Assembly: GCA_001783715.1 (NCBI GenBank)
Contig: MFNF01000055.1
Location: 2,849-66,848 of the forward strand
Direction of reading: 5' to 3'
Source: Candidatus Lambdaproteobacteria bacterium RIFOXYD2_FULL_56_26
GTDB lineage: Bacteria > SAR324 > XYD2-FULL-50-16
Length of the DNA: 64,000 bases
This document shows positions 884-38,808 of the stretch, piece after piece. The translations under genes were made by a program, and so were the position numbers. How positions within the stretch are numbered: the stretch's first letter is position 1; the number at the start of each line of letters is the position of its first letter. The notes under the pieces are model-generated. The model was given only the letters and a program-made list of their open reading frames with translations. It searched no databases and was not told where the DNA came from.

Positions 884-2263
884 TTGAAGATTCTTTTATT
901 AGTCCCCCCTTCTCCTGACCACAAAAGGATCATCCGCAACATCGACTGTAGTCATGAGGCGAAGGCGGACTACCTTTGGCAGCCCAATGACCTGATGCTG
1001 ATTTCCGCCTTGGCCAAGGCGGAAGACGAGGTGCGGTTCGTGGACGGCACGGCGGACCGGATGTCCAGGGAAGAGTTTTTTACCACCCTGGGCCATGAGT
1101 CTTGGGACCTCTTTGTGTTTTGCCTTTCCAGCGCCGCTTGGGCTTCGGACTTTGGATACTTCCAAGAAACCCGTGCCCTGTTTCCTATGACCCCGGCCTA
1201 TGTACTGGGGGATATATTCCTGGAAAAGCCTTACCAGGAAATCATCCTCAAAGAAGCCGAGGGAATCGTGATCTTGCCTCACCAGTGTGATTTGACGGCG
1301 ATGGCCGCACCAGGGGAGAAGAACCGGCCTTTGCCGGGGGTGATGACTCAAGTGGGACAAAATGTGCTTGGCCCTCCGACCAAGCCGGTTTACAGCGAAC
1401 TGGGCTCCCCCAGGCATGAGCTGTTTCTCAAGCCGGGCTACATTTTCCCTTTCGCCCGGCACTACAAATACGCCACCGTCACCTTGATGTGGGGCTGTCC
1501 CTTTTCCTGCTCCTACTGCTCTGATGCCCACTTTCCTCCGGTCGTCCGTACGCCCGAATCGGTGTTGTCCGAATTGGAGTCCTTGGAAAAATTGGGGGTA
1601 AAGGAATTGTTTTTTGCGGACAAGACCTTCGGCTTTCCCCAGAAGAACTCCATGCCTTTATTGGAGGCAATGGCCAAGAGGTTCAAGTTTTCTTGGTCTT
1701 GTTATTTCCACCCCCAACATTACGACCCGGTTTTGCTGGACGCTATGGTCGCCGCCGGTTGCCACACCCTGATCATCGGAGTGGATTCGGCAAATCTCGA
1801 CTCTCTCTCGGTTTACAAGCGCCATGTTTCGGAAAACAAGCTCTTGGGGTTGGTCCGGCATGCGGACAAAAAGAAGGTGGATGTTTGTGCCGACTTCATC
1901 ATCGGTTTGGCCCACGAAACCCTGGAGGACGTGAAGTTGACCTTGGATTTTGCCTTGAGCCTGCCTTTGGATTATGCCTCTTTCAACATCGCTGCTCCGC
2001 TACCCGGTTCGGTGATCCGCCAGGAAGCCTTGGAGTCCGGCCTACTGACCATCGGCTCGGAAGGGTTTGACACCTTGGGGCACAGTGGGGTGCTGGCTTC
2101 GGCGAAGATCGACTCTGCCGCCTTACTCAAACTGCGGCGCAAGGCGGTGTTGAAGTTTTATCTCAGGCCTTCTTACCTGTGGCGGCGTTTGAGCCGTCTC
2201 TCCAGTCTGGAACACTTGACGATCCAGATGCGCCAAGCGGTGGGCTTGTTTACCAAGTCCTAA
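884..2263 (+). CDS. B12-binding-domain radical SAM enzyme (class B), copy 1
   Basis: Cys triad WGCPFSCSYCS (Cx3Cx2C) sits after an N-terminal Rossmann-like region (KILLLVPPSP...DLFVFCLSS). The ORF is open from TTG 803. I prefer the in-frame TTG 884 (MKILLLVPP), so the start is uncertain. Confidence 0.8.
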   Translation: MKILLLVPPSPDHKRIIRNIDCSHEAKADYLWQPNDLMLISALAKAEDEVRFVDGTADRMSREEFFTTLGHESWDLFVFCLSSAAWASDFGYFQETRALFPMTPAYVLGDIFLEKPYQEIILKEAEGIVILPHQCDLTAMAAPGEKNRPLPGVMTQVGQNVLGPPTKPVYSELGSPRHELFLKPGYIFPFARHYKYATVTLMWGCPFSCSYCSDAHFPPVVRTPESVLSELESLEKLGVKELFFADKTFGFPQKNSMPLLEAMAKRFKFSWSCYFHPQHYDPVLLDAMVAAGCHTLIIGVDSANLDSLSVYKRHVSENKLLGLVRHADKKKVDVCADFIIGLAHETLEDVKLTLDFALSLPLDYASFNIAAPLPGSVIRQEALESGLLTIGSEGFDTLGHSGVLASAKIDSAALLKLRRKAVLKFYLRPSYLWRRLSRLSSLEHLTIQMRQAVGLFTKS

Positions 2264-2464
2264 ACGAGGCCCTGACCGCTCCCCTCGCCGCAAAGCCTTT
2301 GGTGAGGGTAAGCTTGAAGTTTGCCGTTGCCAAAGGGCGGGTTTCCAAAGAAACTTAGCCAGCCCCTGCCCCAAGGACCCACCCGGATTCGGCTGGGGTG
2401 CATCGGCACCGGCGGTTGGGACGTTTGGACCTCTGGTAACCTACGAACTTGAAGGACCTAACCT

Positions 2465-3457
2465 TTGAACTTAAAAACCTGGGCAATCCGAGCGGTCAAA
2501 GCCCTCCTGGTGGGGGGAATCCTGGTCTATCTGGTCGAAAGCGAGCGACTGGACCTCAAAAGCATGGGCCTGCTGTTTTCCGAGCCCTGGACCATGCTGG
2601 CGGTGGCCCTGTTGATCCTCTTTGGAGCCAATGGTCTAGTGGCGCTGCGGTGGCGGGTTTTGATGTCCATTCATCCCGGCGCTCCCTCTTTGACCCGGCT
2701 TTTTAACATCCAGTGGATTGGACAATTTTTTGCCGCCGTGCTGCCCGGCACGGTCAGTACCGATGGGGTGAAGGCTTTTTATATCATTAAGGAATCCAAG
2801 GGAATACTCAGTAAAACTCCGATCCTTTCGGTGTTGATCATCGACCGTCTGGCCGGGCTGTTTGGGTTGGTAGTGCTTTCGGTGCTGGGGCTCGTGGTGT
2901 TGGGCAAGACCAGCCATTCCAGCGGCCTTTTGGAACTGTTCGTCTTTGGGCTGTTTGCCGGTATGTCTTTGTTCTTTATGCTTTTGCTCTTACCAATCCC
3001 CGAGCACAAAGACCCGATCCTCAAACTTTTTCCCAAGCTGCCCAAGGGCGAGTTGCTGGAGAAAATTTACCGAGCCTTTGTAAGCTTCCGTAGTCACAGG
3101 TTTTATCTCCTAGTGGGGATCTTTATTTCGGTGTTTATCCAACTGCTGTTGGTGGTCTGTTTTTATCTCCTGGGGCCTTTGGTCTGTAACTGTAGTCCCG
3201 ATCCGTTTGTCTTGGCCTTTATCACCCCCCTAGGCGAGCTTTCTACCGTTGTCCCTCTGGGGCCTGCTGGGATTGGCGTGGGTCATGTGGCCTGGGCCTA
3301 CCTTTGGGCTGAGCAAGGGATGAAGGGCGGGGCGGATGTGTTTAACCTCTTTACCATCATGCGCATCCTGGCCGGTTTGATGGGCGGGATTCCTTACCTG
3401 CTCTACAAAAAAAGGGACGGTGCTCCTCCTTCGTTGGACGACGAATCCGCCCCCTAA
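2465..3457 (+). CDS. UPF0104 / lysylphosphatidylglycerol-synthase-TM-type flippase-like membrane protein, copy 1
   Basis: Polytopic 330-aa protein with LRWRVL...PGTVSTDGVKAFY and C-terminal PLGELSTVVPLGPAGIGVGHV...GADVFNL...GGIPYLL. GAAGGA lies 8 nt upstream of the TTG start. Clear paralog of 31607-32599. Confidence 0.7.
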   Translation: MNLKTWAIRAVKALLVGGILVYLVESERLDLKSMGLLFSEPWTMLAVALLILFGANGLVALRWRVLMSIHPGAPSLTRLFNIQWIGQFFAAVLPGTVSTDGVKAFYIIKESKGILSKTPILSVLIIDRLAGLFGLVVLSVLGLVVLGKTSHSSGLLELFVFGLFAGMSLFFMLLLLPIPEHKDPILKLFPKLPKGELLEKIYRAFVSFRSHRFYLLVGIFISVFIQLLLVVCFYLLGPLVCNCSPDPFVLAFITPLGELSTVVPLGPAGIGVGHVAWAYLWAEQGMKGGADVFNLFTIMRILAGLMGGIPYLLYKKRDGAPPSLDDESAP

Positions 3458-3553
3458 GTAAAGAGGCTCCGATTTTTCTGCCCCAGACCAGCAAAACCCT
3501 ATTCTTTTTAACTGCTTGCCTTACTTTAGGGGCCAGGGAGGGGGAACCCCAAC

Positions 3554-3583
3554 TTGACAAAATCCCCACTTCCCGCCTAGTTT
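3554..3583 (+). promoter_or_regulatory. Candidate sigma70-type promoter upstream of the DegT gene
   Basis: TTGACA (3554-3559), 18 nt spacer, TAGTTT (3578-3583), about 70 nt upstream of ATG 3652. Pattern match only. Confidence 0.25.
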
Positions 3584-3651
3584 TACAAGACTTAAAAAGG
3601 CAGTTTTAGCTCACCAGGAACCGGCTCCACCTCCCTTACGACTAGGCGCAA

Positions 3652-4752
3652 ATGATCCCTTTTGTTGACCTCCAAAGCCAATACAAAGCCCTTAAAAAAG
3701 AAATTGATCCTGCCGTTGAAGCAGTGATGACCCAATGCAATTTCATCTTGGGACAGCCGGTCGCCGAGTTTGAAAAAGCCTTTGCCGCCTTTTGCGGGGC
3801 CAAATATTGTGTCGCCGTTGCCAGCGGAACGGATGCCATGTTTTTGGCCCTCAAGGCCGTGGGCGTAGGACCGGGGGATGAAGTGATCACTGTGGCCAAC
3901 ACCTTTGTGGCCACCACCTTGGCGGTCACCTACAACGGGGCCAAACCAGTGTTGGTGGACCATGATGCCAAGAGCTACAACTTAGACCCCAAGCTGATCG
4001 AAAAAAAGATCACCAAAAAGACCAAGGCCATTGTTCCGGTACACCTCTACGGACAATTGGCCGACATGGATGCCATCCTTGGCATCGCCAAAAAACATGG
4101 GCTTACGGTGGTCGAAGATGCCTGCCAAGCCCATGGGGCCGAACGGGGCGGAAAACGGGCCGGTAGCTTTGGTGCGGCGGCGGGGTTCTCCTTTTATCCG
4201 GGGAAAAACCTCGGTGCCTATGGCGACGGCGGCGGGATCACCACCAACGATGAAGCGCTGTACAACCAGTTGGTCCTGTTGCGAGGTTATGGTTCCCCCA
4301 AAAAATACCACCACGAGTTCATCGGCTACAACTCAAGGCTGGATACCATGCAAGCGGCCATCTTGAAGGTGAAGCTGGCTTACCTGGACGGCTGGAATCA
4401 AGCCCGGGCCAAGGCTGCTGGTCTGTACAACCAGAAGCTAAAAGGGGTCGGAGATTTGGTTTGCCCCGACTTGGGGGACCCAAAGTCCCATATCTTCCAC
4501 CTCTACGTGGTGCGAACCCAACAAAGGGAAGCTTTGATGAAACATCTGGGCGAACGGGGCGTTGGAGTAGGGATCCACTACCCGATCCCGATTTTCCGCC
4601 TGGGGGCCTACCAGGACCAAAACTATGACCCGGCCGAGTTTCCCAACGCCGATCTGTTTAAAGACCAGATCCTGTCCCTGCCGATGTTCCCGGAGATTAC
4701 GGAAGCCCAAATCAATGAAGTGGTGGGTGCGGTAAAGGATTTTTTTAAGTAG
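3652..4752 (+). CDS. DegT/DnrJ/EryC1/StrS-family PLP-dependent sugar aminotransferase (ArnB/WecE/PglE-like)
   Basis: N-terminus [21 protein letters not shown]...[32 protein letters not shown] and the Lys motif [14 protein letters not shown] are characteristic of this family. Confidence 0.9.
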
Positions 4753-4932
4753 CTGCCGGTCCGCACTCTGGTTGAGCGCAAAGGCAGTAGTCCTTGGCCG
4801 GTAGGGAGCCCAAGACCGGCTGCCTACCTGCGGGCATTGGCTCAAAAGGGCTTTACAGTCAGGGCGGCTTTTTGTAGCCTAGGCCCTTGCGGATGAATTC
4901 TTGTTTTAACCGAACCTTGACCCCGGATAACG

Positions 4933-6114
4933 ATGAGGCCCAATTCCCCCAATAGCGAACGGGAACTTCAAATTGAAGATGTGCTCTCTTGGGGAGCTTG
5001 GGGAGGGTATTTCCTGGTCAAACACAAGTTTTTCTGGTTGCTCTCCTCCTTGGGCCTGTTCCTGCTGCTGGGCCTTGTGGCCTTGGTGGGCGGCCGTACT
5101 CAGATCCACCAGTGGGTTGATTTTGAGATCCGGCTCGACAGCTTCGACCTGGGTCCGTTGGGGGAAATCAAACCGGCGGAGATCTCTGCAGGGTTTTCCG
5201 CCCCCGGTTTTGGCGGCTTCACGGTAAACCCGATTTGCTCCCCTTGCGACACCGGAGCTTTGGGCCGCTACCAGATCCGGGTCGAAAACCTGGGGCCCGA
5301 AGGGCTGGCCTCCCCGGAAGTGAGGCCAGAGGTCCTAAAGGAAATCAACAAGGCGGCCCAGGCGGGTACGATCAACAAGATCCGGACCCTGTTGCAGGCT
5401 CGTGCCCAGCATGGCCGGGATTTTTTGACCACCTACCGAGAGTTGAAATCCGACCTGTTTGAGTGGAAACTGTTTCGACTCAGTGCCATTGAAGGGGGGA
5501 ACTTGGTTTTCCAGCCCTTCCAGGTGAGGGCGGTGGAGTCGGCGTTTCTGGTGGTGGAACAGCTGCTGGTCGAACCGGTAAACCTGGTTCTGCTTTCGGA
5601 CCCGGTGGAGTTCCCCAAACTACAAACCCCGGTGATCGACCTGATCACCAAGATTCCCGCCAACCTGATTGTTTTTGGTGCCGAGGTGCGGCAGTCCCGT
5701 TTTCCCTTGGAATCCTATCTGGTCTTGAAACAGTCGGGGCTGGTGAACCTGGACGTGGAGTCTGTCAGGCTACGGCTGAATGCCCAGTTGCAGGCCTTGG
5801 CCCGTGATGCCAGCCTGATCCAGCAGTCCGAACAAATCAAGACCCAGCAGGTCGTCCAAGTCCTGCCGGTTTCCTCTCGGTTGGAGCGGGATTTTGCGGT
5901 TCTCTTCCCGGTGCCGGTCAAATTTTCCAGCAGCGCTCCCTTGGGCCAAATCCCCTCCCTGCCTTGGGGCTCGGTTTTTAAGGGGGTGATTCGGTATTTG
6001 TTGGTGGCGTTGCTGTTGGGCACCGGCGTAACCTGCCTGATCGGGGCTAGGTTACGTTATCCCAAGGAAGAGCGGGATTGGGCGGAGGCCCTCCGGCGCA
6101 TCGCTTGGATCTAG
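4933..6114 (+). CDS. Hypothetical bitopic membrane protein (N- and C-terminal TM helices, large central domain)
   Basis: 393-aa ORF with coding-like composition. TM helices FFWLLSSLGLFLLLGLVALVGG and YLLVALLLGTGVTCLIGA. I recognise no family. Confidence 0.55.
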   Translation: MRPNSPNSERELQIEDVLSWGAWGGYFLVKHKFFWLLSSLGLFLLLGLVALVGGRTQIHQWVDFEIRLDSFDLGPLGEIKPAEISAGFSAPGFGGFTVNPICSPCDTGALGRYQIRVENLGPEGLASPEVRPEVLKEINKAAQAGTINKIRTLLQARAQHGRDFLTTYRELKSDLFEWKLFRLSAIEGGNLVFQPFQVRAVESAFLVVEQLLVEPVNLVLLSDPVEFPKLQTPVIDLITKIPANLIVFGAEVRQSRFPLESYLVLKQSGLVNLDVESVRLRLNAQLQALARDASLIQQSEQIKTQQVVQVLPVSSRLERDFAVLFPVPVKFSSSAPLGQIPSLPWGSVFKGVIRYLLVALLLGTGVTCLIGARLRYPKEERDWAEALRRIAWI

Positions 6115-6151
6115 TCTCCTTGGTTTTAGCCCCCCTTTTATTGGCCTGCCT

Positions 6152-7774
6152 GTGCGCATCGGACTGATCCAGCAGAACTACCTCGTAGGGGACCTGAGCG
6201 GCAACCGGGAAAAGATTTTCCGGGCCGTGGCTGAGGCTCCTGCTGGGGTGGACCTGTTTGTCACCTCCGAGTTGGCCTTGCAAGGCTACCCTCCCCGAGA
6301 CCTTCTTTTGTACCACCGGTTTGTGGAGCGCTCCTTGGAGGCCGTGGAGACCTTGGCCCAAAAGTTGACCGGCTTTGCGCCGCTGCTCTTGGGCGGGGTT
6401 GAGTTTGGTTCCGCCCCCAAACGGTTACACAACTGCGCCTTTTTGCTCCACCAAGGCAAGGTGGTCCAGCGTTTCCGCAAAACCCTGTTGCCCAACTACG
6501 ATATCTTTGACGAACGTCGGTACTTTGAGCCGGGCCAAGGGGCACAAAGCTTTTTGCTGGACGGGCAAAAGATTGGGGTGACCATCTGCGAAGACGTTTG
6601 GGCCGGGAGCCCGGAAGTCCCGTTTTACGACCTGAACCCGGTGGGCGAGTTGCGAGGGGTGGATCTGATGGTCAACCTCTCTGCCTCTCCCTTTGTCCGG
6701 GGCAAACAGGCCAAGCGGGAGATGGTCTTGGGCGATGCCGCCCGGGCATTGGGGGTGCCTACCTTTTATGCCAACCAAGTGGGCGGTACCGACCATTTGG
6801 TGTTTGACGGCTCCAGTTTTGCCTTGGACGGTACGGGAGCTCTGTTGGGCAGAGCGAAGGCCTTTGCCGAGGACCTCTTGGTGGTGGACCCAGATCTTGC
6901 CCCCCAAAGAATTGAGCCCAAGTTGGGGAGCGAAGAAGAGGTGTGGCGGGCATTGGTCCTGGGAGTCAAGGACTATGCCGCCAAGTGTGGGTTCAAAACC
7001 GCCGTGTTGGGCCTTTCGGGCGGGATCGACTCGGCCCTGACCGCAGTGATCGCCGCCCAGGCCTTGGGGGCGGACCAAGTGACCGGACTGCTCCTGCCCA
7101 GCCCCTATTCGAGCCCCGGTTCGGTGGCCGATTCCTTGGCCTTGGCCCAGGCTTACGGGATCAAAACCACCACCCTGCCCATCGGGCCGATGATGGTGGC
7201 CATGGATCTGGCTTTGGCCCCCAGTTTTGAGGGATTGCCCAACGATGTGACCGAAGAGAACCTCCAGGCCCGGATCCGGGGAAACCTGTTGATGGCCTTT
7301 TCCAACAAGTTCGGTTCCCTGCTGCTGACCACCGGAAACAAGTCGGAGCTTTCAGTTGGCTACTGCACTCTGTACGGCGACATGTCCGGCGGCCTCGCTG
7401 TGATCAGCGACCTGTACAAAACCGAAGTCTATCGGCTCTGTCACTGGCTCAACCAAACCCAAGGGGGCAAGATTCCCGAGGCGATTTTGACCAAAGCCCC
7501 ATCGGCAGAGCTTCGGCCCGGCCAGACCGACCAGGATAGCCTGCCGGACTATGACACCTTGGACGCAGTGCTGCACCACCTGATCGAAGAGCGGAAGTCG
7601 GCGGCGGAGACGGCGGCCCAGGGCTTTGACCTGCCGCTGGTGGAGCGGATCAACCAATTGCTCAGCCGGGCGGAGTTCAAGCGCCAGCAGGCAGCACCGG
7701 GGATCAAGGTCAGCACCCAGGCCTTTGGTGGCGGTTGGCGGATGCCCATTGCTGCCTCCAAGACCCTGTTTTAG
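6152..7774 (+). CDS. nadE: Glutamine-dependent NAD+ synthetase (nitrilase/CN-hydrolase domain fused to NAD synthetase domain)
   Basis: GTG start. N-terminal CN-hydrolase part (RIGLIQQNY...GVTICEDVW) and C-terminal PP-loop part (VLGLSGGIDSAL...NKSELSVGYCTLYGDMSGG). Confidence 0.9.
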   Translation: MRIGLIQQNYLVGDLSGNREKIFRAVAEAPAGVDLFVTSELALQGYPPRDLLLYHRFVERSLEAVETLAQKLTGFAPLLLGGVEFGSAPKRLHNCAFLLHQGKVVQRFRKTLLPNYDIFDERRYFEPGQGAQSFLLDGQKIGVTICEDVWAGSPEVPFYDLNPVGELRGVDLMVNLSASPFVRGKQAKREMVLGDAARALGVPTFYANQVGGTDHLVFDGSSFALDGTGALLGRAKAFAEDLLVVDPDLAPQRIEPKLGSEEEVWRALVLGVKDYAAKCGFKTAVLGLSGGIDSALTAVIAAQALGADQVTGLLLPSPYSSPGSVADSLALAQAYGIKTTTLPIGPMMVAMDLALAPSFEGLPNDVTEENLQARIRGNLLMAFSNKFGSLLLTTGNKSELSVGYCTLYGDMSGGLAVISDLYKTEVYRLCHWLNQTQGGKIPEAILTKAPSAELRPGQTDQDSLPDYDTLDAVLHHLIEERKSAAETAAQGFDLPLVERINQLLSRAEFKRQQAAPGIKVSTQAFGGGWRMPIAASKTLF

Positions 7775-9951: not shown

Positions 9952-10178
9952 TCCGCTCCGCTGTTTGTGGACCCAGGTCGAGGTCAAACCTTCCAACCTT
10001 GGGTCAGGCTATCCCAACCTCCAGGCCGGGGTCAACCGGGAGTAGTCAAGGAGGCCAAAGTGGGAGGGAGAACCCTTGGGGTTGACCCCGATTGGCCCGA
10101 TGGGGTACAAATCCAGAACAATGGACCGCTCCGGGGGTATCCGCCCCCAAGGTCCCAACCTTTTTTTTCCTGCGCCGC

Positions 10179-11213: not shown

Positions 11214-11216
11214 TCT

Positions 11217-13573: not shown

Positions 13574-14019
13574 GCGGCTACCAGCAATTTTTGTATCTTC
13601 ACATGGTCGTGCATCTTTTGGTGGCCTTGCCGCTCTTGTTTTTGGGGTGGAAAGGTTGGGGGGCCAAAGGAGTCGGTTGGGGGCTGGCGGGTACCTTCGG
13701 CATTGATTCAGATCATTTTTTTAGGCTCTTTCTGCACCCGTCCGAGTTTTGGGACCGCCTGTTGGCCTGGAATCTTTTTGATGGTGAACGAGCCCCCTTT
13801 TTGCTCTTCCATAGCTTTGAATTGGCCTTTGTGCTGATGTTGGTCGGGTGGATTTGGAAGGACAGGCTTTGGCCGTTCTTGGTGGTCGGTGCGGCTTTTT
13901 TTGTCCATCTCTCTTTGGACATGGGGACCTACGCCTTGCTGGGCCTGCATCCGGCCTTTTACACTTGGACGGGATGGGTCTTGGGGCTCTCAAAAGTGGT
14001 CTGGGGGCAAACATTTTGA
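13570..14019 (+). CDS. Small polytopic membrane protein, unknown function
   Basis: ATG 13570 overlaps the GT2 stop (ATGA). The 149-aa product has about 4 hydrophobic helices. The ORF-track start 13396 lies inside the GT2 gene and was trimmed. Confidence 0.5.
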   Translation: MSGYQQFLYLHMVVHLLVALPLLFLGWKGWGAKGVGWGLAGTFGIDSDHFFRLFLHPSEFWDRLLAWNLFDGERAPFLLFHSFELAFVLMLVGWIWKDRLWPFLVVGAAFFVHLSLDMGTYALLGLHPAFYTWTGWVLGLSKVVWGQTF

Positions 14020-26374: not shown

Positions 26375-26380
26375 GTAAAG

Positions 26381-30697: not shown

Positions 30698-30707
30698 GGT
30701 GTTGAAG

Positions 30708-31601: not shown

Positions 31602-31606
31602 GCTTG

Positions 31607-32599
31607 ATGAGAACAATACTACGGCTAGTAGCAAAATTCCTGTTTCTGGGGTTGATTTTGGGGTACTTGATTTACTCGGGCCACCTAAATCCAGGAAAGC
31701 TGTTTCTTTTTACAGAAATGCCTCTGTTTTTTGGTTTAATGTTTGCGAACGTGGCACTGGGTATGTTGGGGCTCAATGCGGTTCGGTGGTGGGTTTTGCT
31801 AAAAAGCCTCTCTATCCATTTGATGTTCAGGCGGGTGCTTGCGATCACCATGATCAGCTTTTTCTTCAATATTTCAATGCCTGGGACGATAGCACAGGAC
31901 GCTATTCGTAGCCTGTATATCTTAAAAGAAAAGGAAAAGACCTCACAAACCGTACCTCTAGTGATGTCGGTTATACTTGACCGCTTTTTGGGTTTTTTCG
32001 GGGTGATTTTGTCGTTTCTTGCAGGGGTTCTTTGGTTACCCGAAGAATTGAATATAAATCCAATAATTTATTATACTGTATGGACCGTTGGCTTCTGTTC
32101 TTTTTGTGGGATTTTCACAATATCTATTTTTGTCTTACCCCTTTCTGAGATAGACCAATTTATCGTGATACTGGCGAGGGTTCCCATAATCGGAAGCCAT
32201 TTGATCCAGATTGCTTTGGCCCTACGAGCATATAAGGGCAAGTGGGGTGTTTTGTCGATAGCCATGGGGTTATCAATACTCACTCAAGTTATTTTTGTTT
32301 TTGTCATGACTGTTGGATATCAACTACTCACTAGGCAATCTCTTCCTTTTTCTGTACATATGTTTGTCGTGCCGATTGGTGAGTTGGCAACGATTTTGCC
32401 GTTAACTCCCGCCGGGGCGGGGATAGGGCATGTGTCATATGACTATTTGTATCACATGTTTGGCGGAAAAATGGGGGCCGATTTATTCAATCTATATTTT
32501 TGTATGGTGCTCTTGGTAGGTTCCATTGGTGGACTTCCATACCTTTTGATTAAGCCGAAAAAAATGAATAAGGAAGACCTTTTGACTACGTCCCAGTAA
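31607..32599 (+). CDS. UPF0104 / flippase-like membrane protein, copy 2
   Basis: Polytopic, with VRWWVL...PGTIAQDAIRSLY and PIGELATILPLTPAGAGIGHV...GADLFNL...GGLPYLL, collinear with 2465-3457. ATG 31607 is preceded by an in-frame TTG 31604. Confidence 0.7.
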   Translation: MRTILRLVAKFLFLGLILGYLIYSGHLNPGKLFLFTEMPLFFGLMFANVALGMLGLNAVRWWVLLKSLSIHLMFRRVLAITMISFFFNISMPGTIAQDAIRSLYILKEKEKTSQTVPLVMSVILDRFLGFFGVILSFLAGVLWLPEELNINPIIYYTVWTVGFCSFCGIFTISIFVLPLSEIDQFIVILARVPIIGSHLIQIALALRAYKGKWGVLSIAMGLSILTQVIFVFVMTVGYQLLTRQSLPFSVHMFVVPIGELATILPLTPAGAGIGHVSYDYLYHMFGGKMGADLFNLYFCMVLLVGSIGGLPYLLIKPKKMNKEDLLTTSQ

Positions 32600-32769
32600 A
32601 ACTAAAAATCCACTCCGCCTCATTTTATAACGGAACGAAATTTTCGAACAAAATTTGGAGTTGGCCTAAGGTGAACCTCAAAAACTGGACAATGGAGTCC
32701 ACTTTATTCTAAAAGGACGGGAAACCTGTCCAGGTAAGAGGTACTACTTTAGTGCTTACGGAGATTATC

Positions 32770-33531
32770 ATGAATCAGTCGTATGCTGTTAGGTTGCTAT
32801 TGGGGCTATTGCTGTTTTTTGGATTATCTTTCACATCAGTTGGATTCGCTTGGGACGCAATGACCGAAGATGGGGCCGAGTTTCCCAACAAAGACCGGTA
32901 CTTCCCCAAGGTGATGGTCCAGTACCAAAGGGTACTTTTTTTGTGGGACGATTTGGTGGACTACCGCCAGGATGTTTGGGGGGACAACCAAAACGGAAAG
33001 GTCACCCTACGTACCGAAAAGCGAGCCCGGACCAGCCACGGGGTCACGGACTATTTGGACAATGGCAAGCTGATCCTCAAAAACCAGGAAATGGTTTGGC
33101 TGTTAAAACGGCTGAACTTTGGGCAGTTTGAATGTCGTTGGTGCGGGTTGGGAAAAGCGGAACCGGGCAACGACAAGTTCATTGGCTTTGGGGACCCAGC
33201 CGAAGGGTATGCCGCAGGTTATAGGCTTTACAGCGGTGACAAAGGACCGGGGTTGTATGTGTTTTTGGTCAACCAAGGCCAAGCCAAAACCGTGGCCATT
33301 CCCTGGAACGATGACTTTGCCGCCAGTACCAGGTACATCGTTTCTTGGAGCCCAGGGAAGTTTGATTTTTACCTGATCACCGCTACCAAGTTCATCCATG
33401 CGGCCACCATCGCCGAAGCGGACATCGCCGTAGTGGGGATTCCCAAGATCAACATGGAGATCTCCCTGCAAAGTATCTCGGGTCCCAATGAGGTCATGGC
33501 GGACCTGATCAAATACGATGCCTATCCTTAA
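32770..33531 (+). CDS. Secreted hypothetical protein (signal peptide; beta-rich, possibly lectin/jelly-roll-like)
   Basis: ATG 32770 is preceded by GGAG. Signal-like N-terminus AVRLLLGLLLFFGLSFTSVGFA. The remainder has no family I can name. Confidence 0.55.
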   Translation: MNQSYAVRLLLGLLLFFGLSFTSVGFAWDAMTEDGAEFPNKDRYFPKVMVQYQRVLFLWDDLVDYRQDVWGDNQNGKVTLRTEKRARTSHGVTDYLDNGKLILKNQEMVWLLKRLNFGQFECRWCGLGKAEPGNDKFIGFGDPAEGYAAGYRLYSGDKGPGLYVFLVNQGQAKTVAIPWNDDFAASTRYIVSWSPGKFDFYLITATKFIHAATIAEADIAVVGIPKINMEISLQSISGPNEVMADLIKYDAYP

Positions 33532-33617
33532 GTCCGGCCACCGGTAGGTTCCCGGCGGCCAAACCCCTTGGGGCTGTTCATGGATGCCGGTCCAGCGGTG
33601 GCCTTGGGTCCATGCCG

Positions 33618-36311
33618 CTAGGGCTGGACAAAGTCCACCTTCAAGGTGAGCGGGTTGGTTTTGACCGCCCAGAGCTGGCTGTTTTCCCCGGAAAAATCAA
33701 ACCGCACCCACAACCGCTTTCCGGTCACGGCGGTTTGCCCGGACAGCTCCCGCTCGTAAATTCCCGTCCAAATGCCTCGCCCATCGCTGGCCAAACGGCC
33801 CATAGAACGGAATTGGGTCCCGTTGGTCGAAATGCTGATCCCTATAAAGTTGACCATCTCCGGGTCGTTGTGGACCCTGGGGAAGCTGGTAAAGGCCAAG
33901 GTCTTCATCTCTTTTTGGCCGCGAAGTTCAAAGGTCAAGCTGGCCGGGTTAGGGGAGTTGGGGGCAAACCAGCTCCAGTCTCCGGCCACAAACAACCCCA
34001 GCCCTTCGGCACCACCGCTTTCCAGTTGGGCTTGGGAAACCAGGAGTTTGACCTCCTCAGAAGCCCCGTTGGCCGCCAAATCCAGGATTTGGGCCTTGGG
34101 GGTTGGCACCCATACGGTTGAAGCTGGCACCAGTCGCCAGTCATAGGTCTCTTCCAGCAAGGCGGGAGCCGTCCCGGAGCCGGGCCGAGCCGATTGGTAG
34201 GCTTGGCTGCCTTGGGAACAACGGCAGGGAGACTGTTTGACGAACACACCTTCCCCTTTGGCTTGGAGCGCCAGACCATAAAATCCACGGGGGTCCATTT
34301 TGAGGCCAGAAAACTCCAACCGCACTTTTCCGCTTGGGTTGACGCTGGCCTTACCTAAAACCTGGGTTGCCCCACCCATAGGATTGGCCGGGTCCAAGGC
34401 CAGAACTTCGGCGGTGACGTTGCCCGTGGCAAGCCCGTCCTGACGCAACTCCAGTTCCACCGCCTCCAGGGCCGGGAAGGGGAAACGGAAGGTTTGGACC
34501 AAGGGCTCGGTGCCCAGAGGAATCCAGGTGGACTCTTGGGTTAGGGAGGCGTTCACGACATACACCGCCTGGAGCGGGATCCCCCTGGAGGTATAATTGA
34601 TCCGAACCGGTTCCAACTTGGGGTGGAGTTGGGCAAAGCGGAGCAGATCATCGTAGTCGTTGCCGTAGTTGGCAGGTTTGCCGGGAATCTTTGCCCCCGC
34701 TTGGTCCAGGGAAAAGAGGTAAAGGATTTTTTGTACTCCCCGGTCAAACTGCTCCTGTTCCCATAACCGCATTTCCGAGAGTTGGTACTCTTTGGCCCCT
34801 AACAACCCCGCCCAGGAATGGACCCTGTATTCTCCGTGGGTCAGGAAAAACAGCGGGGCATTGGGGATCAAGGTCGAGTGGCCCAGCACCACCAACACCT
34901 GCTCCGGCGGACCGGCTTTAAGCACCTCTTGGGCCAACACTTCGCTGTGGATAGCTCCCCAAAGGTTGGCATCGTCCTGCCGGTAGTCTACATAATAATT
35001 TTTGTAGGTCATCAGGCTGCTGATCCCAAAGACTAGCCCGGCCAACAGCCACAGTCCTCGCCCTCGGCCCAGGGCAGTCCACTTCTGTTCCAACCAACCT
35101 GCGGCCAAGAGCATCCCCTCGACACAAAGGGCATACAGGGCCGGAAGGACCACCACAAAGTAACGGATCTCATAGGTGATCAAAAAGGCAAATACCGTCC
35201 AAGACACCCAGAACCAAGTGAACCAAAGTTTGTCGGCTGAACTGCGGCGAACAAAGGCCCGACCCAGGCCCAACAGGAAAAAGGGCAACAGGACCCGTTG
35301 GAGCTGGGTTGCCCCGACCAATGTAAAGTTGGGCATGTCGGTGCCAAAGGGAGCCGGATAGGGGGGCATCGACCAAAAGAGGACCCGGAGCGACATCAGG
35401 GGATTGTTCCACAAAAAGGCGGCTCCCTTGGCGACCGGGTTTTCATCGGTGCCCCGGTCCAGGTAGTAGGCATAGGTTTGGATTAGATTGCCCCAGGGGT
35501 TAGGGGTCAAGGCGGCGGAAAAAAGGATGGAGCCCAGCACAAACACCCCAAGAGCCAGCAAGGCCCCCAGCCAGAGGTATTTTCCCTTTAAAAAAGTTAA
35601 ACTCCCACTGTCCCAAACCAACCAAACCAGCAGAATCAACGGGAACACAAACACCGAAGGGTAACAATTGAGCAGTGCAAACCCGTAGGCCAAGCCGCCC
35701 CAAAGGAAATAAACCGGACGTTTTTGGCTGTATCCCCTAAAAAAAGCCCCCAAGGTCAAGGCTCCAAAGAGCGCTCCAAAAACAGTTGGGGTAAACACGG
35801 TTCGGCCCAAGAGCAGCAGGACCAAGGACTGGCTGGCAAACAAGGTTGCCAAGAGGGCCGATTGGGTCCCCGAGATTCGGGCTACTGTCTTGTAAAGTAC
35901 CGCCAAAAAGGCCAGGGACAAAACTGCAGCGGAAAAATGGATGGCAAAGGCATTGGCCCCAAAGAGCCAAAATGCGGCCCCCAGCCAGAGGGTCTGCAAG
36001 GGGTAAAGGTCGGGGATCAGGTAGGCGGTGTGCATGGGCAGGTTAGGCCCCAGCGCCATTTGGGACCACCGCTGGATCATATAGGGGCCAAAGTCCAGGT
36101 GGGCTCTGTAAGCTTGGTAAAAAAGTTCGGTCGCCAAGCCCAGGACCGCCTCTCCGTTTTCCAGGGGAGGAAAGTTGTGGATGTCCCAAAAGAGAAAAAA
36201 CAAGCCGTTGGCCAGGACCAAGAGAAACAAAGCGATCTTTGTGGTCGGTTTTTGTGGAACCATCTTTGATTTCCGGGAAATTCTTGTTGTGGCCTTGGCC
36301 GCTGAGGTCAA
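33618..36311 (-). CDS. GT-C fold membrane glycosyltransferase (ArnT/PMT, GT39/83-like) with a ~440-aa extracytoplasmic C-terminal region
   Basis: 897 aa. About 12 N-terminal TM helices with a first-loop acidic motif (FPPLENGEAV), then a long soluble region. The start is TTG 36311 or ATG 36263. Confidence 0.65.
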   Translation of the reverse strand: MTSAAKATTRISRKSKMVPQKPTTKIALFLLVLANGLFFLFWDIHNFPPLENGEAVLGLATELFYQAYRAHLDFGPYMIQRWSQMALGPNLPMHTAYLIPDLYPLQTLWLGAAFWLFGANAFAIHFSAAVLSLAFLAVLYKTVARISGTQSALLATLFASQSLVLLLLGRTVFTPTVFGALFGALTLGAFFRGYSQKRPVYFLWGGLAYGFALLNCYPSVFVFPLILLVWLVWDSGSLTFLKGKYLWLGALLALGVFVLGSILFSAALTPNPWGNLIQTYAYYLDRGTDENPVAKGAAFLWNNPLMSLRVLFWSMPPYPAPFGTDMPNFTLVGATQLQRVLLPFFLLGLGRAFVRRSSADKLWFTWFWVSWTVFAFLITYEIRYFVVVLPALYALCVEGMLLAAGWLEQKWTALGRGRGLWLLAGLVFGISSLMTYKNYYVDYRQDDANLWGAIHSEVLAQEVLKAGPPEQVLVVLGHSTLIPNAPLFFLTHGEYRVHSWAGLLGAKEYQLSEMRLWEQEQFDRGVQKILYLFSLDQAGAKIPGKPANYGNDYDDLLRFAQLHPKLEPVRINYTSRGIPLQAVYVVNASLTQESTWIPLGTEPLVQTFRFPFPALEAVELELRQDGLATGNVTAEVLALDPANPMGGATQVLGKASVNPSGKVRLEFSGLKMDPRGFYGLALQAKGEGVFVKQSPCRCSQGSQAYQSARPGSGTAPALLEETYDWRLVPASTVWVPTPKAQILDLAANGASEEVKLLVSQAQLESGGAEGLGLFVAGDWSWFAPNSPNPASLTFELRGQKEMKTLAFTSFPRVHNDPEMVNFIGISISTNGTQFRSMGRLASDGRGIWTGIYERELSGQTAVTGKRLWVRFDFSGENSQLWAVKTNPLTLKVDFVQP

Positions 36312-36326
36312 GGCTGTGAACCGTTT

Positions 36327-37283
36327 TTAGGGCGAAGGTTTTTTTCTGCGGTCCCATACCAAATAGGCCAGACCGGCGAGCAGGAAAAATCCGCTCGCTA
36401 GACTGCCCAGGAAATAATACCGTTGGGGCAAAAATTCGAGCACCAGATCAAACTCGTAGCCTGCTTCCGGGGTCCCCTCCAGCAGTCCTGCCTTTTTGAG
36501 GGCTTCCAGGTCGATCCACCAAAAGTTCCCGAACTCCCCGTATTTGCCGTGGCTTTCCCCAAACCAAGGTTGGGCTCCGATCAAGGAGTACCAAGCCGGG
36601 GGTGTAAGATTGTTGTTTTGCAGGCTATTGTAAAAAGGTTTGGAGATAAAGTCCACCTGGTAGTCTTCCGTCCTTTTTTCCACCTCCCCTTGCCGGTAGT
36701 CGTACAGGGGCCGTTGTTTGGGGCTCAGGTCCCCCAGGTCGCTGACCCAACCCTTGGCGAGCATTGCCTGAAGTTCCTTCCAGTTGGCCTGCCCCACTTG
36801 GTTGCCTTCGAGGACCTTGTACTCTTCTTTCTGCAGCTCGGGCGGGCGCTGGGCCGTGCGGGGGCGGAAATAGACCTTCCAGTGGTGGTGGTAGGAGGCC
36901 AGAAAGACTAACGGGAAGCTTTGTTTGGCCCCATGGACCCGGAGGTAGTAGGTAGAGGAGGAATGCCTGACGAACTCCAGCACCGGAACAGGGCCGGTAA
37001 ACCTTGGGTAAATCCGAAAGTCTTCGGAGGCGGTTGGGTTGGGTCCCAGAGGGACTCCGGCCGATTGTAGCAAACCGCTCAGTTGGGTTTGCTCGGCGGC
37101 ACTTTTGGCGCTCAGGTAGGACCAACTCGGCTCGGCCCCGGCGGATGTGGGGCAAAGGGTCCACCAGAGCCCGGCCACAAAGCCCAAAGCCCAAGTCCGG
37201 GGACGAAGGACCCAGCCCCTAAGAGGCACCGAAGGTCGATTGGACGGGCACCAGCCCAAAGGTTGAGGGGAAGTTTCGGTCAT
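36327..37283 (-). CDS. Hypothetical membrane-anchored protein resembling the C-terminal extracytoplasmic module of YfhO-type proteins
   Basis: Start at ATG 37283, 1 nt after the upstream stop. N-terminal hydrophobic segment. YYLRVHGAKQSFPLVFLASYHHHWKVY resembles the ...Y/F-x-P-x-W-x-A... stretch of the two YfhO-like proteins. C-terminal TM FLGSLASGFFLLAGLAYLVW. Confidence 0.45.
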   Translation of the reverse strand: MTETSPQPLGWCPSNRPSVPLRGWVLRPRTWALGFVAGLWWTLCPTSAGAEPSWSYLSAKSAAEQTQLSGLLQSAGVPLGPNPTASEDFRIYPRFTGPVPVLEFVRHSSSTYYLRVHGAKQSFPLVFLASYHHHWKVYFRPRTAQRPPELQKEEYKVLEGNQVGQANWKELQAMLAKGWVSDLGDLSPKQRPLYDYRQGEVEKRTEDYQVDFISKPFYNSLQNNNLTPPAWYSLIGAQPWFGESHGKYGEFGNFWWIDLEALKKAGLLEGTPEAGYEFDLVLEFLPQRYYFLGSLASGFFLLAGLAYLVWDRRKKPSP

Positions 37284-37284
37284 T

Positions 37285-38808
37285 TTATTTGGAAAGAAGT
37301 CGCAGCAACAAGGGAGCCTTTTGGTAGAAAAAAAACTCCCAGTAAAATTGGTACCACCCCCGGCGGAACCGGAGGTTGGAAAAGGGGCTGTAGGCCCAAC
37401 TGAACAACCGCAAGATCCGGTACATGGCGTTTTTTCCGCTGGTGACCTTAAAGATTTTTTGGTCGATAAAGTAGGACCCCAACACCAAGAGGTTGCAAAA
37501 CTCTCGGGTTTCTTGGGTTTCCCAAGGGGCTCGGTAGTTCCCCTCCACTTCCACTTCCACCCATTGGCCCACCGAAGAGGGAGGGGTGAATTTCCAGTTG
37601 GCCGAGGCATAGTCGAACAGCTCGGTGCCCGGCAGCGGGCGGAACCGGTTGGGGGTGAAGATGATGGCCCTGGGGTTGTCTTCAATCAGCCGTAAGATCA
37701 AGTCCCGGGTCTGTTTGAGGTCGGTCAGGGTTTCGCCGGGGATCCCTACGATAAAGTTGTACCCCGCCGTGATCTCCTTGTGTCGGGCCAATTTCTGGTT
37801 GCATTCGATGATGTCTTCGACGGTGCAGTTTTTTTTGAACAGCTCCAGCATTTGGTTGCTGCCGCTTTCGGCTCCGATGTGCAGGATGTTGGTACCGGCG
37901 TTGGCCAACTTGCTCAAAAAGTCATCGGACATCTTTTTGATTTCGTTGATCCTCGCACCCCGAAAGCCCAGGCGAACCTTGAGGCCCCGGCGGCTGATCT
38001 CGTCGATGATCGACTCCACATGCTGGAGGTTCACAAAGGAGTCGTCGTCGATAAAATAAATGTAGGAGGCTTGGTACCGGTCCACCAAAAACTGGATGTG
38101 GTCCACCACTTCCACCACGTCCACCCGCTCCCACTTGCGGGCGTAGCCCTGCAGCGCCGCCGGGGTGCTGCAAAAGGTGCATTTGTAGGGGCAGCCGTAA
38201 ACGCTGTACATGGAAAAGATGAACCCCATGTCCTCCAACTGTCCGTACCGGCCATAGTCGGGGATCAGGTGGTAGGGGATCTTCTTGTAGTTGATGTATT
38301 CAAACTGCTTGGCTGGGGGCCAGGACCGCAGTTGGCCGTCCTGTTTGAGGTAAAGCCCGGCAATCTGGTCGGGCCGGGTCCCTTGGGCCAAGGCTTGGGT
38401 CAACAGGGCCAAGGGTTTGGAACCATAGCCGCTGATGACATAGTCGCAGGCCGGGGTAAAGGTGAAGGGGGTTTCGGGGTAAAAGGTCGGATGGGGGCCG
38501 CCCCAAATCACCGGCAGGTCCGGGCGCTTTTCCTTGGCAAACTCGCTGACCTCGATGGCGTTCAAGATCGGTTTTCCGGTCATTACGCTGACCCCAACCG
38601 CAAGCAGGGAAGGATCGGCCAACTTTTGGGCCAACACTTCCTTCCAGTCTTGCAGGTGGAGCCGGTTGTCCAGGAGTTCCACCCCATACCCGGCTTCGAT
38701 CACCTCAATGGAGGTGTAAAGCAGGCTCAGAGGGGCATGGCGGACAAAATTCCCCGAAAGCCCCATGTGAGGATAAACCAAAAGCAATTTGTTTTTTTGG
38801 GGATTCAT
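37285..38808 (-). CDS. B12-binding-domain radical SAM enzyme, copy 4
   Basis: Start chosen at ATG 38808 (MNPQKNKLLLVYPHMG). B12-binding-like LLAVGVSVMTGKPI...VIWGGPHPTF, then SVYGCPYKCTFCSTP and LHIGAESGS. Confidence 0.85.
   Translation of the reverse strand: MNPQKNKLLLVYPHMGLSGNFVRHAPLSLLYTSIEVIEAGYGVELLDNRLHLQDWKEVLAQKLADPSLLAVGVSVMTGKPILNAIEVSEFAKEKRPDLPVIWGGPHPTFYPETPFTFTPACDYVISGYGSKPLALLTQALAQGTRPDQIAGLYLKQDGQLRSWPPAKQFEYINYKKIPYHLIPDYGRYGQLEDMGFIFSMYSVYGCPYKCTFCSTPAALQGYARKWERVDVVEVVDHIQFLVDRYQASYIYFIDDDSFVNLQHVESIIDEISRRGLKVRLGFRGARINEIKKMSDDFLSKLANAGTNILHIGAESGSNQMLELFKKNCTVEDIIECNQKLARHKEITAGYNFIVGIPGETLTDLKQTRDLILRLIEDNPRAIIFTPNRFRPLPGTELFDYASANWKFTPPSSVGQWVEVEVEGNYRAPWETQETREFCNLLVLGSYFIDQKIFKVTSGKNAMYRILRLFSWAYSPFSNLRFRRGWYQFYWEFFFYQKAPLLLRLLSK

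Follow-up and report, generated by a model that had tools for sequence, protein, structure and literature searches.

The diversity of envelope glycans is credited to nucleotide-sugar enzymes, Leloir glycosyltransferases and three-component systems with simple auxiliary enzymes. To our knowledge, sugar-remodelling radical S-adenosylmethionine (SAM) enzymes have so far come from antibiotic pathways (AprD4, GenK and MoeK5) and from hopanoids (HpnJ). Here we describe a stretch of 64,000 nucleotides (hereafter the window) from Candidatus Lambdaproteobacteria bacterium RIFOXYD2_FULL_56_26 (contig MFNF01000055.1, positions 2,849 to 66,848 of the forward strand), which encodes four radical SAM enzymes, termed R1 to R4, among genes of polysaccharide synthesis. 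The DNA between the left window edge and ~40 kb belongs to a composite cell-envelope glycan locus, part of which lies upstream of the window, and each of the four enzymes represents a distinct, widespread and uncharacterized family. We favor, with moderate confidence, the reading that all four are tailoring enzymes of make-tailor-flip-transfer modules, which would act on lipid-linked sugars within this composite locus.

Among the described systems, AprD4 is a radical 1,2-diol dehydratase whose target is the glucosamine ring of paromamine and whose partner is the NADPH reductase AprD3 (PMC5461906). It shares a similarity network with class B radical SAM enzymes yet works without cobalamin, being listed as non-cobalamin-binding despite a Rossmann-related N-terminal domain (PMC12931638). 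MoeK5 methylates the sugar of a lipid-linked saccharide, and for HpnJ ring contraction of a lipid-linked glucosamine has been proposed (PMC9204698). For envelope glycans, a YfhO three-component system has been described (PMC7389260), and auxiliary enzymes that diversify the lipid-linked sugar before its transfer, such as epimerases, are known (PMC11127046). In the literature searched, we found neither a described three-component system with radical SAM tailoring enzymes or an AsnB-like amidotransferase, nor any report of radical SAM enzymes in O-antigen, polysaccharide, surface-glycan or three-component systems. In two reviews of cobalamin-dependent radical SAM enzymes the word "polysaccharide" is absent; one of them also lacks "lipopolysaccharide", and the other lacks "glycan" and "sugar". 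Judging from gene content, the novelty here would be the combination of radical SAM sugar tailoring with lipid-linked glycan modification systems.

The window proteins were scanned against Pfam and NCBIfam. The four open reading frames (ORFs) reported by an earlier sequence-only reading of this DNA were found at the positions it gave, all of them scoring above the PF04055 cut-off of 29.5 bits:

884 to 2263, plus strand: R1, AprD4-like radical SAM enzyme of 459 aa with the cluster motif CPFSCSYC (PF04055 57.9 bits)
11217 to 12683, plus strand: R2, radical SAM enzyme of 488 aa with a B12-binding domain and the motif CWWGKCTFC (PF02310 33.5 bits; PF04055 56.3 bits)
29357 to 30697, plus strand: R3, AprD4-like radical SAM enzyme of 446 aa with the motif CPYGCHFC (PF04055 75.9 bits)
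37285 to 38808, minus strand: R4, radical SAM enzyme of 507 aa with a B12-binding domain and the motif CPYKCTFC (PF02310 43.7 bits; PF04055 78.1 bits)

The cysteine motifs of that reading are exact. The triad has the form CX3CX2C in R1, R3 and R4, whereas that of R2 is CX4CX2C and is not canonical. The gene junctions of that reading were also confirmed base by base, namely a 3-nt gap between R2 and the preceding glycosyltransferase gene GT2a, a 1-nt overlap between R2 and the following glycosyltransferase gene GT2b, a 4-nt ATGA overlap between an AsnB-like amidotransferase gene and R3, and a distance of 1 nt from the R4 stop to the next ATG. R3 and the short-chain dehydrogenase/reductase (SDR) gene behind it are likewise separated by 1 nt. 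Such overlapping or near-abutting stops and starts point to co-transcription and possibly to translational coupling. The start codons chosen at 884, 29357 and 38808 match where the aligned family members begin. Pairwise identity among R1 to R4 is 21–27%, which argues for four old families rather than local duplicates; recent tandem duplication of the radical SAM genes was ruled out by the same values. In profile-profile ranking (hhalign), R1 and R3 form the closest pair, and R1 and R4 the most distant one.

All four enzymes had been taken for the cobalamin type, which by domain content holds for R2 and R4 but probably not for R1 and R3. The PF02310 (B12-binding) cut-off of 32.1 bits is passed only by R2 and R4; R3 reaches a sub-threshold 15.2 bits (E = 0.019), and R1 has zero match to this model even at E <= 5. 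Precomputed PF02310 matches occur in 0 of 120 listed R1 relatives versus 120 of 120 listed R4 relatives, and very few close relatives of R3 carry the domain. By their sequences, R2 and R4 belong to class B, having an N-terminal B12-binding-type domain above the gathering score. R1 and R3, too, begin with an alpha/beta domain, but among solved structures both proteins are nearest to AprD4. The profile of the R3 family aligns with AprD4 (PDB 6fd2) over nearly its full length (E = 2.6e-52), and AprD4 6fd2 is the best PDB match of R1 alone (E = 1.5e-19). Structural comparisons covered R1 and R3 and were made with AlphaFold models (predicted local distance difference test, pLDDT, 93.1 and 94.5, respectively). 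The top match of both models is 6fd2, with template modeling (TM) scores of 0.83/0.82 for the predicted R3 structure (E = 1e-25) and 0.76/0.77 for that of R1 (E = 3e-22); TsrM, TokK, QCMT, CysS and OxsB reach at most 0.70 with the R3 model and 0.65 with the R1 model. Identity in the structural alignments to AprD4 is just ~19–22%. R1 and R3 are probably not cobalamin enzymes, and since both are AprD4-like, a cobalamin-free radical dehydration or deoxygenation is at least as likely for them as methylation or ring contraction. No sequence motif known to us is diagnostic of cobalamin binding among class B radical SAM enzymes.

R2 and R4 resemble MoeK5, GenK/GenD1 and Fom3 in architecture, joining a B12-binding to a radical SAM domain, and differ from them in that those enzymes serve secondary metabolism and not envelope glycan synthesis. 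The R4 profile matches TokK, OxsB, QCMT and CysS, for TokK, OxsB and CysS into the N-terminal part (the best PDB sequence relatives of R4, at E ~1e-13 to 1e-10, being QCMT, TokK, OxsB and TsrM), and the R2 family profile matches QCMT 9ccb, AprD4 and OxsB (E ~1e-11 to 3.5e-07). The relation of R2 and R4 to QCMT/MgmA (9ccb), TokK (7kdx), OxsB (5ul2) and TsrM (6wte) is nevertheless very distant; the substrates of the solved cobalamin radical SAM enzymes are protein, carbapenem, nucleoside and tryptophan, and the cluster motif of R2 is one residue longer than that of QCMT.

These domain assignments bear on the possibility that all four are cobalamin-dependent C-methyltransferases of the GenK/MoeK5/Fom3 type making C-methyl or branched-chain glycan sugars, in essence the option that the sequence-only reading put first; we consider it unlikely, though not negligibly so. 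In moenomycin unit F, MoeF5 amidates a lipid-linked uronic acid. The trio of R4, an AsnB-like enzyme and a glycosyltransferase recalls that unit, which is C-methylated by MoeK5, and the class B enzymes characterized so far are mostly methylases (PMC9204698). R2 and R4 do exceed the B12-binding cut-off, and the R4 profile aligns with the methylases TokK, CysS and QCMT, the stretch shared with TokK and CysS starting in the N-terminal part. R1, however, has no B12-binding signal and R3 has just 15 bits; AprD4, the closest solved relative of both by sequence and by fold, neither methylates nor uses cobalamin; the SDR partner of R3 is conserved, as would be expected from the pairing of AprD4 with AprD3; and no methylase family cut-off was reached.

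The genes around R3 develop this parallel. R1 and R3 share the full-length two-domain architecture of AprD4, with a convincing B12-binding signature in neither, and AprD4 acts on a sugar ring that is attached to a larger aglycone. By gene position, R3 adjoins an NAD(P)-type SDR in the way that AprD4 pairs with the reductase AprD3 (PMC5461906), whereas R1 is paired with a DegT aminotransferase, unlike AprD4. The surroundings differ, too, since AprD4 belongs to an aminoglycoside antibiotic cluster (apramycin C3'-deoxygenation) and R3 to an envelope cassette of GT2, AsnB, flippase-like and GT-C genes. Four genes accompany R3 directly (GT2, glycosyltransferase family 2):

26452 to 27486, plus strand: GT2c, a GT2 resembling polyprenyl-phosphate-sugar synthases, with a C-terminal transmembrane-like segment (PF00535 88.7 bits; GC 42%)
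27486 to 29360, plus strand: AsnB-like glutamine amidotransferase (PF00733 232.4 bits, GATase_7, TIGR01536 400.8 bits)
30699 to 31601, plus strand: RmlD-like SDR reductase (PF01370, PF04321)
31604 to 32599, plus strand: LPG_synthase_TM flippase-like membrane protein, copy 2 (PF03706 85.6 bits; 9 transmembrane-like segments; GC 42%)

Together with R3, these genes form a sharply bounded low-GC island of exactly five genes (26452 to 32599). Its GC content is 42–45% versus ~55–60% in the other genes measured, and its GC content at third codon positions is 43–47% versus 53–80% in the other listed genes (65–80% in all except the genes of a 199-aa membrane protein and a PAN-domain protein described below). 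An island so sharply bounded in composition suggests that the R3 cassette was acquired as a unit. Its flanks contain no repeats beyond short chance-level matches, and no integrase was found there. The AsnB-like protein keeps the MCGI glutaminase N-terminus, N-terminal cysteine included.

The R3 family is small, with ~58 full-length relatives at 35% identity or more; a genome scan with the R3 sequence alone returned zero relatives, and the orthologous loci came from an alignment-based scan. Within 5 kb of R3 in 22 orthologous loci, an AsnB gene occurs in 17, a GT2c-like GT2 in 17 and an RmlD-like SDR in 15. The SDR directly adjoins R3, as in the window, in three further loci (L320 to L322). The Vibrio coralliilyticus cassette (L320) consists of GtrA, R3, SDR, AsnB and GT2; a transposase gene precedes it, and an IS66 gene follows after ~1.7 kb. 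In a Bdellovibrionia metagenome-assembled genome (MAG; L321), a 699-aa protein without family match, GT2, AsnB, R3 and SDR stand amid unrelated genes. On a metagenome contig (L322), the order is Wzy_C, R3, SDR, AsnB, GT2, a 630-aa protein without family match and GtrA, and this cassette sits inside a NeuB/epimerase locus. YfhO-like proteins are encoded directly upstream of R3 in several loci; in L095, L099 and L103 these are relatives, at 37–43% identity, of the YfhO-like protein encoded at 7771 to 9996 of the window.

The R2 family combines a broad distribution with a tightly coupled glycosyltransferase partner. In the window, R2 lies in the following module:

10092 to 11213, plus strand: GT2a, membrane-anchored GT2 with 2 C-terminal transmembrane-like segments (PF00535, PF13641, PF13632)
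12683 to 13573, plus strand: GT2b, a second GT2 (PF00535 93.9 bits)
13570 to 14019, plus strand: small membrane protein of 149 aa (3 transmembrane-like segments)
14120 to 15418, plus strand: Wzx-type polysaccharide flippase (PF01943 49.2 bits, PF13440; 10 transmembrane-like segments)
15423 to 17669, plus strand: polytopic membrane protein of 748 aa, a GT-C candidate (weak PF09586 match, E = 0.08; 6 transmembrane-like segments)

A genome scan with R2 gave 334 matches, the best 80 of which were used for identity, motif and taxonomy. These 80 share 54–82% identity with R2 and come from Thermodesulfobacteriota, Elusimicrobia, Acidobacteriota, Verrucomicrobiota, many lineages of the candidate phyla radiation (CPR), Methanoperedens and other archaea, and 76 of them keep the motif RDCW[WY]G.C.FC (CX4CX2C). 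The near-invariance of this CX4CX2C motif (RDCWWGKCTFCSW) from Proteobacteria to CPR and archaea (loci L007 to L086) is an observation in its own right, as is an identity of 54–82%, unusually high for such taxonomic breadth. A GT2a orthologue (32–63% identity) is encoded immediately upstream of R2 in 58 of the 75 evaluable loci, 20 times with a 4-nt overlap, and within 5 kb in 70; GT2b lies within 5 kb in 55 of the 75. Wzx and a GT2c-like gene are also frequent neighbors, and the 149-aa membrane protein recurs beside R2 in L007, L035, L046, L050, L060 and L068. In the closest relative (82% identity) the module is syntenic and reads DegT, GT2a, R2, GT2b, small protein, Wzx, 748-aa protein, PAN protein and epimerase. 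A tblastn search of R2 and R3 against 72,556 plasmids returned only distant paralogues, with <30% identity among the matches listed and <60% in all.

The R2–GT2a pair is also the most plausible place for an HpnI/HpnJ-like reaction, in which at least one enzyme of the locus would contract a lipid-linked pyranose to a carbocyclic cyclitol head group and the product would be a glycolipid. The two systems share their logic, as in the HpnJ/HpnI/HpnK route to the bacteriohopanetetrol cyclitol ether a GT2 attaches a sugar to a lipid, after which a class B radical SAM enzyme remodels the sugar ring. HpnJ is the top-scoring NCBIfam model for R1 (87.4 bits), R2 (154.7 bits) and R3 (128.5 bits), GT2a is membrane-anchored with weak Glyco_transf_21 and Glyco_tranf_2_3 signals, the R2–GT2a pair is strongly conserved across domains of life, and HpnJ itself is proposed to act on a lipid-linked sugar ring (PMC9204698). 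Yet these scores, and that of R4 (90.0 bits), fall three- to four-fold or more short of the HpnJ cut-off (TIGR03471, 577.6 bits); GT2a has no HpnI match; no HpnK-type deacetylase, HpnL equivalog or hopanoid gene was found; and the window scans contain no squalene-hopene cyclase or related domain. The neighbors here are polysaccharide genes without equivalents of HpnI, HpnK or HpnL, and the R2 loci are typical Wzx/GT2/GT4/epimerase polysaccharide loci, so we hold a ring contraction of this kind to be doubtful.

R4 belongs to a large family with 673 relatives at E <= 1e-20, more than 100 of them above 50% identity. Across 67 R4 orthologue loci, a GT2c-like GT2 was found within 5 kb in 50, AsnB in 44 and both in 39. 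A scaffold from the same aquifer sample (L323) carries SDR, R4 (59% identity), AsnB, GT2 and LPG_synthase_TM, followed by a GT2 and a YfhO-like protein, with a second B12-binding radical SAM enzyme, methyltransferases and a carbamoyltransferase near this R4. Many R4 loci (L158 to L226) come from magnetotactic lineages or MAG sets, namely Magnetococcales, Magnetospirillum, Magnetobacteriaceae, Solidesulfovibrio magneticus and strain LM-1, a skew that may reflect genome sampling. The immediate surroundings of R4 in the window are as follows:

33618 to 36311, minus strand: GT-C glycosyltransferase of PMT_2/ArnT type, 897 aa (PF13231 56 bits versus a cut-off of 26.1; 8 transmembrane-like segments)
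36327 to 37283, minus strand: 318-aa protein without Pfam match, directly downstream of R4 (start 1 nt after the R4 stop)
39021 to 40247, minus strand: polytopic membrane protein of 408 aa upstream of R4, without Pfam match (9 transmembrane-like segments)

The placement of all four enzymes between glycan genes, as the sequence-only reading had it, therefore needs a correction for R4: GT2, GT4, Wzx, LPG_synthase_TM, PMT_2 and YfhO-like genes are indeed near, but R4 is flanked by two unannotated genes, and the GT-C gene lies two genes away. Relatives of the 318-aa protein, at 25–34% identity, occur in the R2-type glycan loci L022, L026, L039, L041, L045, L062 to L064 and L069.

R1 is followed in the window by a flippase-like gene and an aminotransferase gene:

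2465 to 3457, plus strand: LPG_synthase_TM flippase-like membrane protein, copy 1 (PF03706 83.6 bits; 6 transmembrane-like segments)
3652 to 4752, plus strand: DegT/DnrJ/EryC1 sugar aminotransferase (PF01041 403.8 bits)

The PF03706 cut-off is 33.4 bits; the cut-off of the "flippase-like" model TIGR00374 (43.2 bits) is reached by copy 1 only (46.6 bits). Relatives of R1 at 44–61% identity are numerous. Three annotated R1 contexts are rich in other radical SAM enzymes of B12-binding and SPASM types (four further ones in two contexts and three in one), and GT2, GT9 or PMT_2 GT-C genes occur there as well, along with thiamine pyrophosphate (TPP) enzyme/transketolase pairs. The R1 orthologues of Geobacter/Nitrospirota type (L317 to L319) are accompanied by SPASM radical SAM enzymes, a split TPP enzyme (E1_dh plus transketolase), GT2, a GT9 heptosyltransferase or PMT_2 protein, and tetratricopeptide repeat (TPR) proteins.

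Co-localization with glycan genes is thus conserved, the adjacency of each family recurring in tens of unrelated genomes, and the adjacency of radical SAM and glycan genes is more than chance. By curated cut-off, none of the four proteins qualifies as a known non-glycan enzyme either, the HpnJ, BchE, BzaD, PhpK and ladderane protein models all scoring far under threshold. An incidental co-localization, in which the radical SAM enzymes would serve unrelated pathways such as cofactor synthesis or the maturation of ribosomally synthesized and post-translationally modified peptides (RiPPs), is extremely improbable in our view. The RiPP models ApyD and rSAM_ocin_1, as well as BzaD and BchE, do give partial matches, and a NadE gene, maybe a housekeeping one, is embedded in the locus; but the ApyD scores are 95.7–104.7 bits versus a cut-off of 750 and that of rSAM_ocin_1 is 84 versus 281.85, the glycan-gene synteny of R2, R3 and R4 extends over tens of loci in many phyla, and the gene junctions overlap or nearly abut. 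The locus scans revealed no RiPP-associated families and no cofactor genes besides NadE, small precursor-peptide ORFs not having been searched for. RiPP maturation was discarded as a candidate function, the cut-offs not being reached and the family scans, in which small precursor ORFs were not searched for, having found no RiPP-associated genes nearby.

The modified lipid tails suggested by the sequence-only reading found no support, as hopanoid or other lipid-pathway genes and matches to the HpnI, HpnK and HpnL models are lacking. We accordingly think it very unlikely that the radical SAM enzymes act on a lipid moiety as HpnP/HpnR, the ladderane protein and the archaeal lipid radical SAM enzymes do, be it on the polyprenyl carrier, on an anchor or on lipids that span the membrane. 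Several neighbors are uncharacterized membrane proteins, and there are partial matches to HpnR and to the TIGR04072 lipid-biosynthesis B12/radical SAM model (65–94 bits), but these scores lie far under the cut-offs (650 and 360 bits, respectively), no lipid-biosynthesis genes were found in the window, and the conserved partners GT2, AsnB, SDR and DegT are sugar enzymes. Membership in a hopanoid or other lipid pathway was rejected on the absence of partner genes and on scores under the cut-offs.

The favored reading, tailoring of lipid-linked sugars, takes its shape from the combination of a GT2, a flippase-like transporter and a GT-C enzyme, which is the anatomy of three-component systems (GtrA/GtrB/GtrV, Arn, CsbB/GtcA/YfhO and the GT136 pentofuranose system); on this ground the radical SAM enzymes are proposed to tailor carrier-linked sugars. 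The presumed flippase differs, being here of the LPG_synthase_TM type, and GtrA (PF04138) stands in the R3 cassettes L320 and L322 where the window has LPG_synthase_TM. A membrane-anchored GT2 would load a sugar onto the lipid carrier at the cytoplasmic face, soluble enzymes including the radical SAM enzymes would tailor the carrier-linked sugar, its passage across the membrane would fall to a flippase-like protein, which is LPG_synthase_TM or Wzx in this locus and GtrA in related ones, and a GT-C enzyme of PMT_2 type or YfhO-like would transfer it to an envelope acceptor. For R3 and its conserved SDR, the most likely chemistry would be radical 1,2-diol dehydration followed by ketoreduction, a net deoxygenation of the sugar, and the AsnB-like enzyme may amidate the same sugar if it is a uronic acid. 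R1 may supply the DegT aminotransferase encoded nearby with a keto-sugar, and R2 and R4 would most likely perform C-methylation or rearrangement of the sugar ring made by the partner GT2.

Several points weigh against this proposal. The families of R1 to R4 are all biochemically uncharacterized, and their NCBIfam matches are all far under the equivalog cut-offs. For the AprD4 equivalog (NF033070, cut-off 500 bits) the scores are 112.7 (R3), 83.5 (R1), 44.7 (R2) and 36.7 bits (R4), and by such single-sequence hidden Markov model (HMM) scores HpnJ (128.5 bits) and AprD4 are equally close to R3. The cluster motif is CX3CX2C in R1 and R3 versus CX3CX3C in AprD4 (GCPYPCRFYC, a one-residue insertion in the HMM alignment). 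Membership in the AprD4 family fails on score and motif, whereas fold and partner logic fit. We know of no solved structures of HpnJ, BchE, Fom3 or MoeK5, so the finding of AprD4 as nearest fold is biased by PDB content. The partial NCBIfam matches of GT2c are to AglJ (93.5 bits, cut-off 325), PpgS (56.6, cut-off 370) and ArnC (50.5, cut-off 529), and its best partial matches also include dolichyl-phosphate hexose transferase; as GT2c lies under every curated cut-off, its lipid-phosphate acceptor is a presumed one. The YfhO-like assignments are sub-threshold, close R1 orthologues have few BLAST-detectable shared neighbors, and no priming phosphoglycosyltransferase was found in the window. The substrate could instead be a nucleotide sugar or the completed glycan rather than a lipid-linked monosaccharide.

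The density of radical SAM genes, which the sequence-only reading knew from no characterized surface-glycan locus, turned out to be common. The count of class-B-like radical SAM ORFs covered 179 related loci with lengths from 15 kb to at most 21.5 kb: at least two were present in 77 loci (43%), at least three in 31, at least four in 14 and five in 3. A uniquely high density was accordingly discarded as a feature of this locus. The locus is, moreover, not confined to the ~40 kb that had been described; it is a glycan locus cut by the left window edge, which continues upstream with two more B12-binding radical SAM enzymes. This extension was read on contig MFNB01000058.1 (aquifer MAG GCA_001783655.1; L325, positions 1 to 9117) and comprises a partial B12-binding radical SAM protein of 502 aa, a GT4, a B12-binding radical SAM protein of 530 aa, two class I methyltransferases, two proteins of 606 and 700 aa with 6–7 transmembrane segments, and the start of a LamG gene. 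The 530-aa protein carries the motif CPYKCTFC and represents a fifth family, 24–28% identical to R1 to R4, so that at least six such enzymes are encoded in ~48 kb of window plus upstream sequence. Taken together, the earlier interpretation is partly supported: the idea of radical enzymes that tailor a glycan is right in spirit, the locus is not unique, and the range of chemistry considered was too narrow.

These distributions suggest that four to six radical SAM families are standard, horizontally mobile parts of lipid-linked glycan cassettes in hundreds of genomes of bacteria, CPR and archaea. More tentatively, and with a good deal of doubt, radical SAM chemistry might be a widespread, ancient and unrecognized diversifier of primary envelope glycans, acting through GT2-coupled families and mobile Gtr-like cassettes to yield new sugars. 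If so, the GT2a–R2 pair with its CX4CX2C motif would remodel lipid-linked sugars before extracytoplasmic transfer across domains of life, Gtr-like cassettes would carry an AprD4-like dehydratase, an amidotransferase and a reductase, and such systems would be carried by Proteobacteria, CPR, DPANN and methanogen-related archaea alike. The products would include envelope sugars not yet described, for example radical-deoxygenated or aminated uronamides, C-methyl or carbocyclic sugars. Confirmation would bring envelope glycobiology tailoring reactions of a new class and probably sugar structures new to it, large families now generically named "B12-binding radical SAM protein" would receive functions, and enzymes for glycoengineering would become available. 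Cultured carriers, including Vibrio coralliilyticus, Desulfosarcina cetonica, Fundidesulfovibrio agrisoli, Geomonas paludis, Magnetospirillum and Bacteriovorax, make the proposal testable.

The remaining genes of the locus are the following:

1 to 754, plus strand: C-terminal part of a LamG/concanavalin-like secreted protein of 373 aa (Laminin_G_3 53.3 bits)
4933 to 6114, plus strand: 393-aa protein without Pfam match, retained in other assemblies of the same contig
7771 to 9996, minus strand: YfhO-like polytopic membrane protein, a GT-C candidate (PF09586 26.2 bits, under the cut-off of 28.5; 7 transmembrane-like segments)
17666 to 18265, plus strand: 199-aa membrane protein (5 transmembrane-like segments; GC 46%)
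18269 to 21796, plus strand: 1175-aa protein with ~9 N-terminal transmembrane segments followed by PAN/Apple domains (PF14295 51 bits; GC 50%)
21885 to 22949, plus strand: NAD-dependent sugar epimerase/dehydratase, copy 1 (PF01370 121.8 bits)
22904 to 24007, plus strand: NAD-dependent sugar epimerase/dehydratase, copy 2 (PF01370 117.5 bits)
24009 to 25187, plus strand: GT4 glycosyltransferase (a) (PF13692, PF00534)
25091 to 26374, plus strand: GT4 glycosyltransferase (b) (PF00534 107.9 bits)
32752 to 33531, plus strand: 259-aa protein without family match (one transmembrane-like segment at residue 5, N-terminal hydrophobic)

Over 1–46 kb, the gene order begins with the partial LamG gene, R1, LPG_synthase_TM, DegT, the 393-aa unknown, NadE and, on the minus strand, the YfhO-like gene. 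It continues with GT2a, R2, GT2b, the small membrane protein, Wzx, the 748-aa YfhO-related protein, the 199-aa membrane protein and the 1175-aa protein with transmembrane and PAN regions, and then with two epimerase/dehydratases, two GT4, GT2c, AsnB-like, R3, the RmlD-like SDR, LPG_synthase_TM and the 259-aa unknown. On the minus strand follow the PMT_2 GT-C, the 318-aa unknown, R4, the 9-transmembrane unknown and two small unknown genes, and to the right of the glycan genes lie the housekeeping genes AmiC and MutS. The window sequence recurs in several independent assemblies. The LamG gene begins upstream of the window and is full-length at L325 8750 to 9871, the ORF at 47 to 754 being its C-terminal part. 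The 748-aa protein has 35% identity to the C-terminus of the YfhO-like protein. By analogy with GT-C enzymes that have a C-terminal carbohydrate-binding module, the 1175-aa PAN protein may combine a polytopic transferase or polymerase with a lectin-like module in the periplasm.

Among the glycan genes, a full-length glutamine-dependent NAD synthetase (CN_hydrolase plus NAD_synthase; 6152 to 7774) abuts the YfhO-like gene and could be either a housekeeping NadE or a recruited amidotransferase. At 49056 to 54900 on the minus strand, an operon of MoxR (AAA_3), DUF58, VWA and BatA type resembles the aerotolerance (Bat) set and is apparently unrelated to the glycan locus. Well away from the main locus (54328 to 55440; 62680 to 63996), the window encodes two further envelope-glycan enzymes: a GT4, and a heptosyltransferase of family GT9 that suggests a lipopolysaccharide core.

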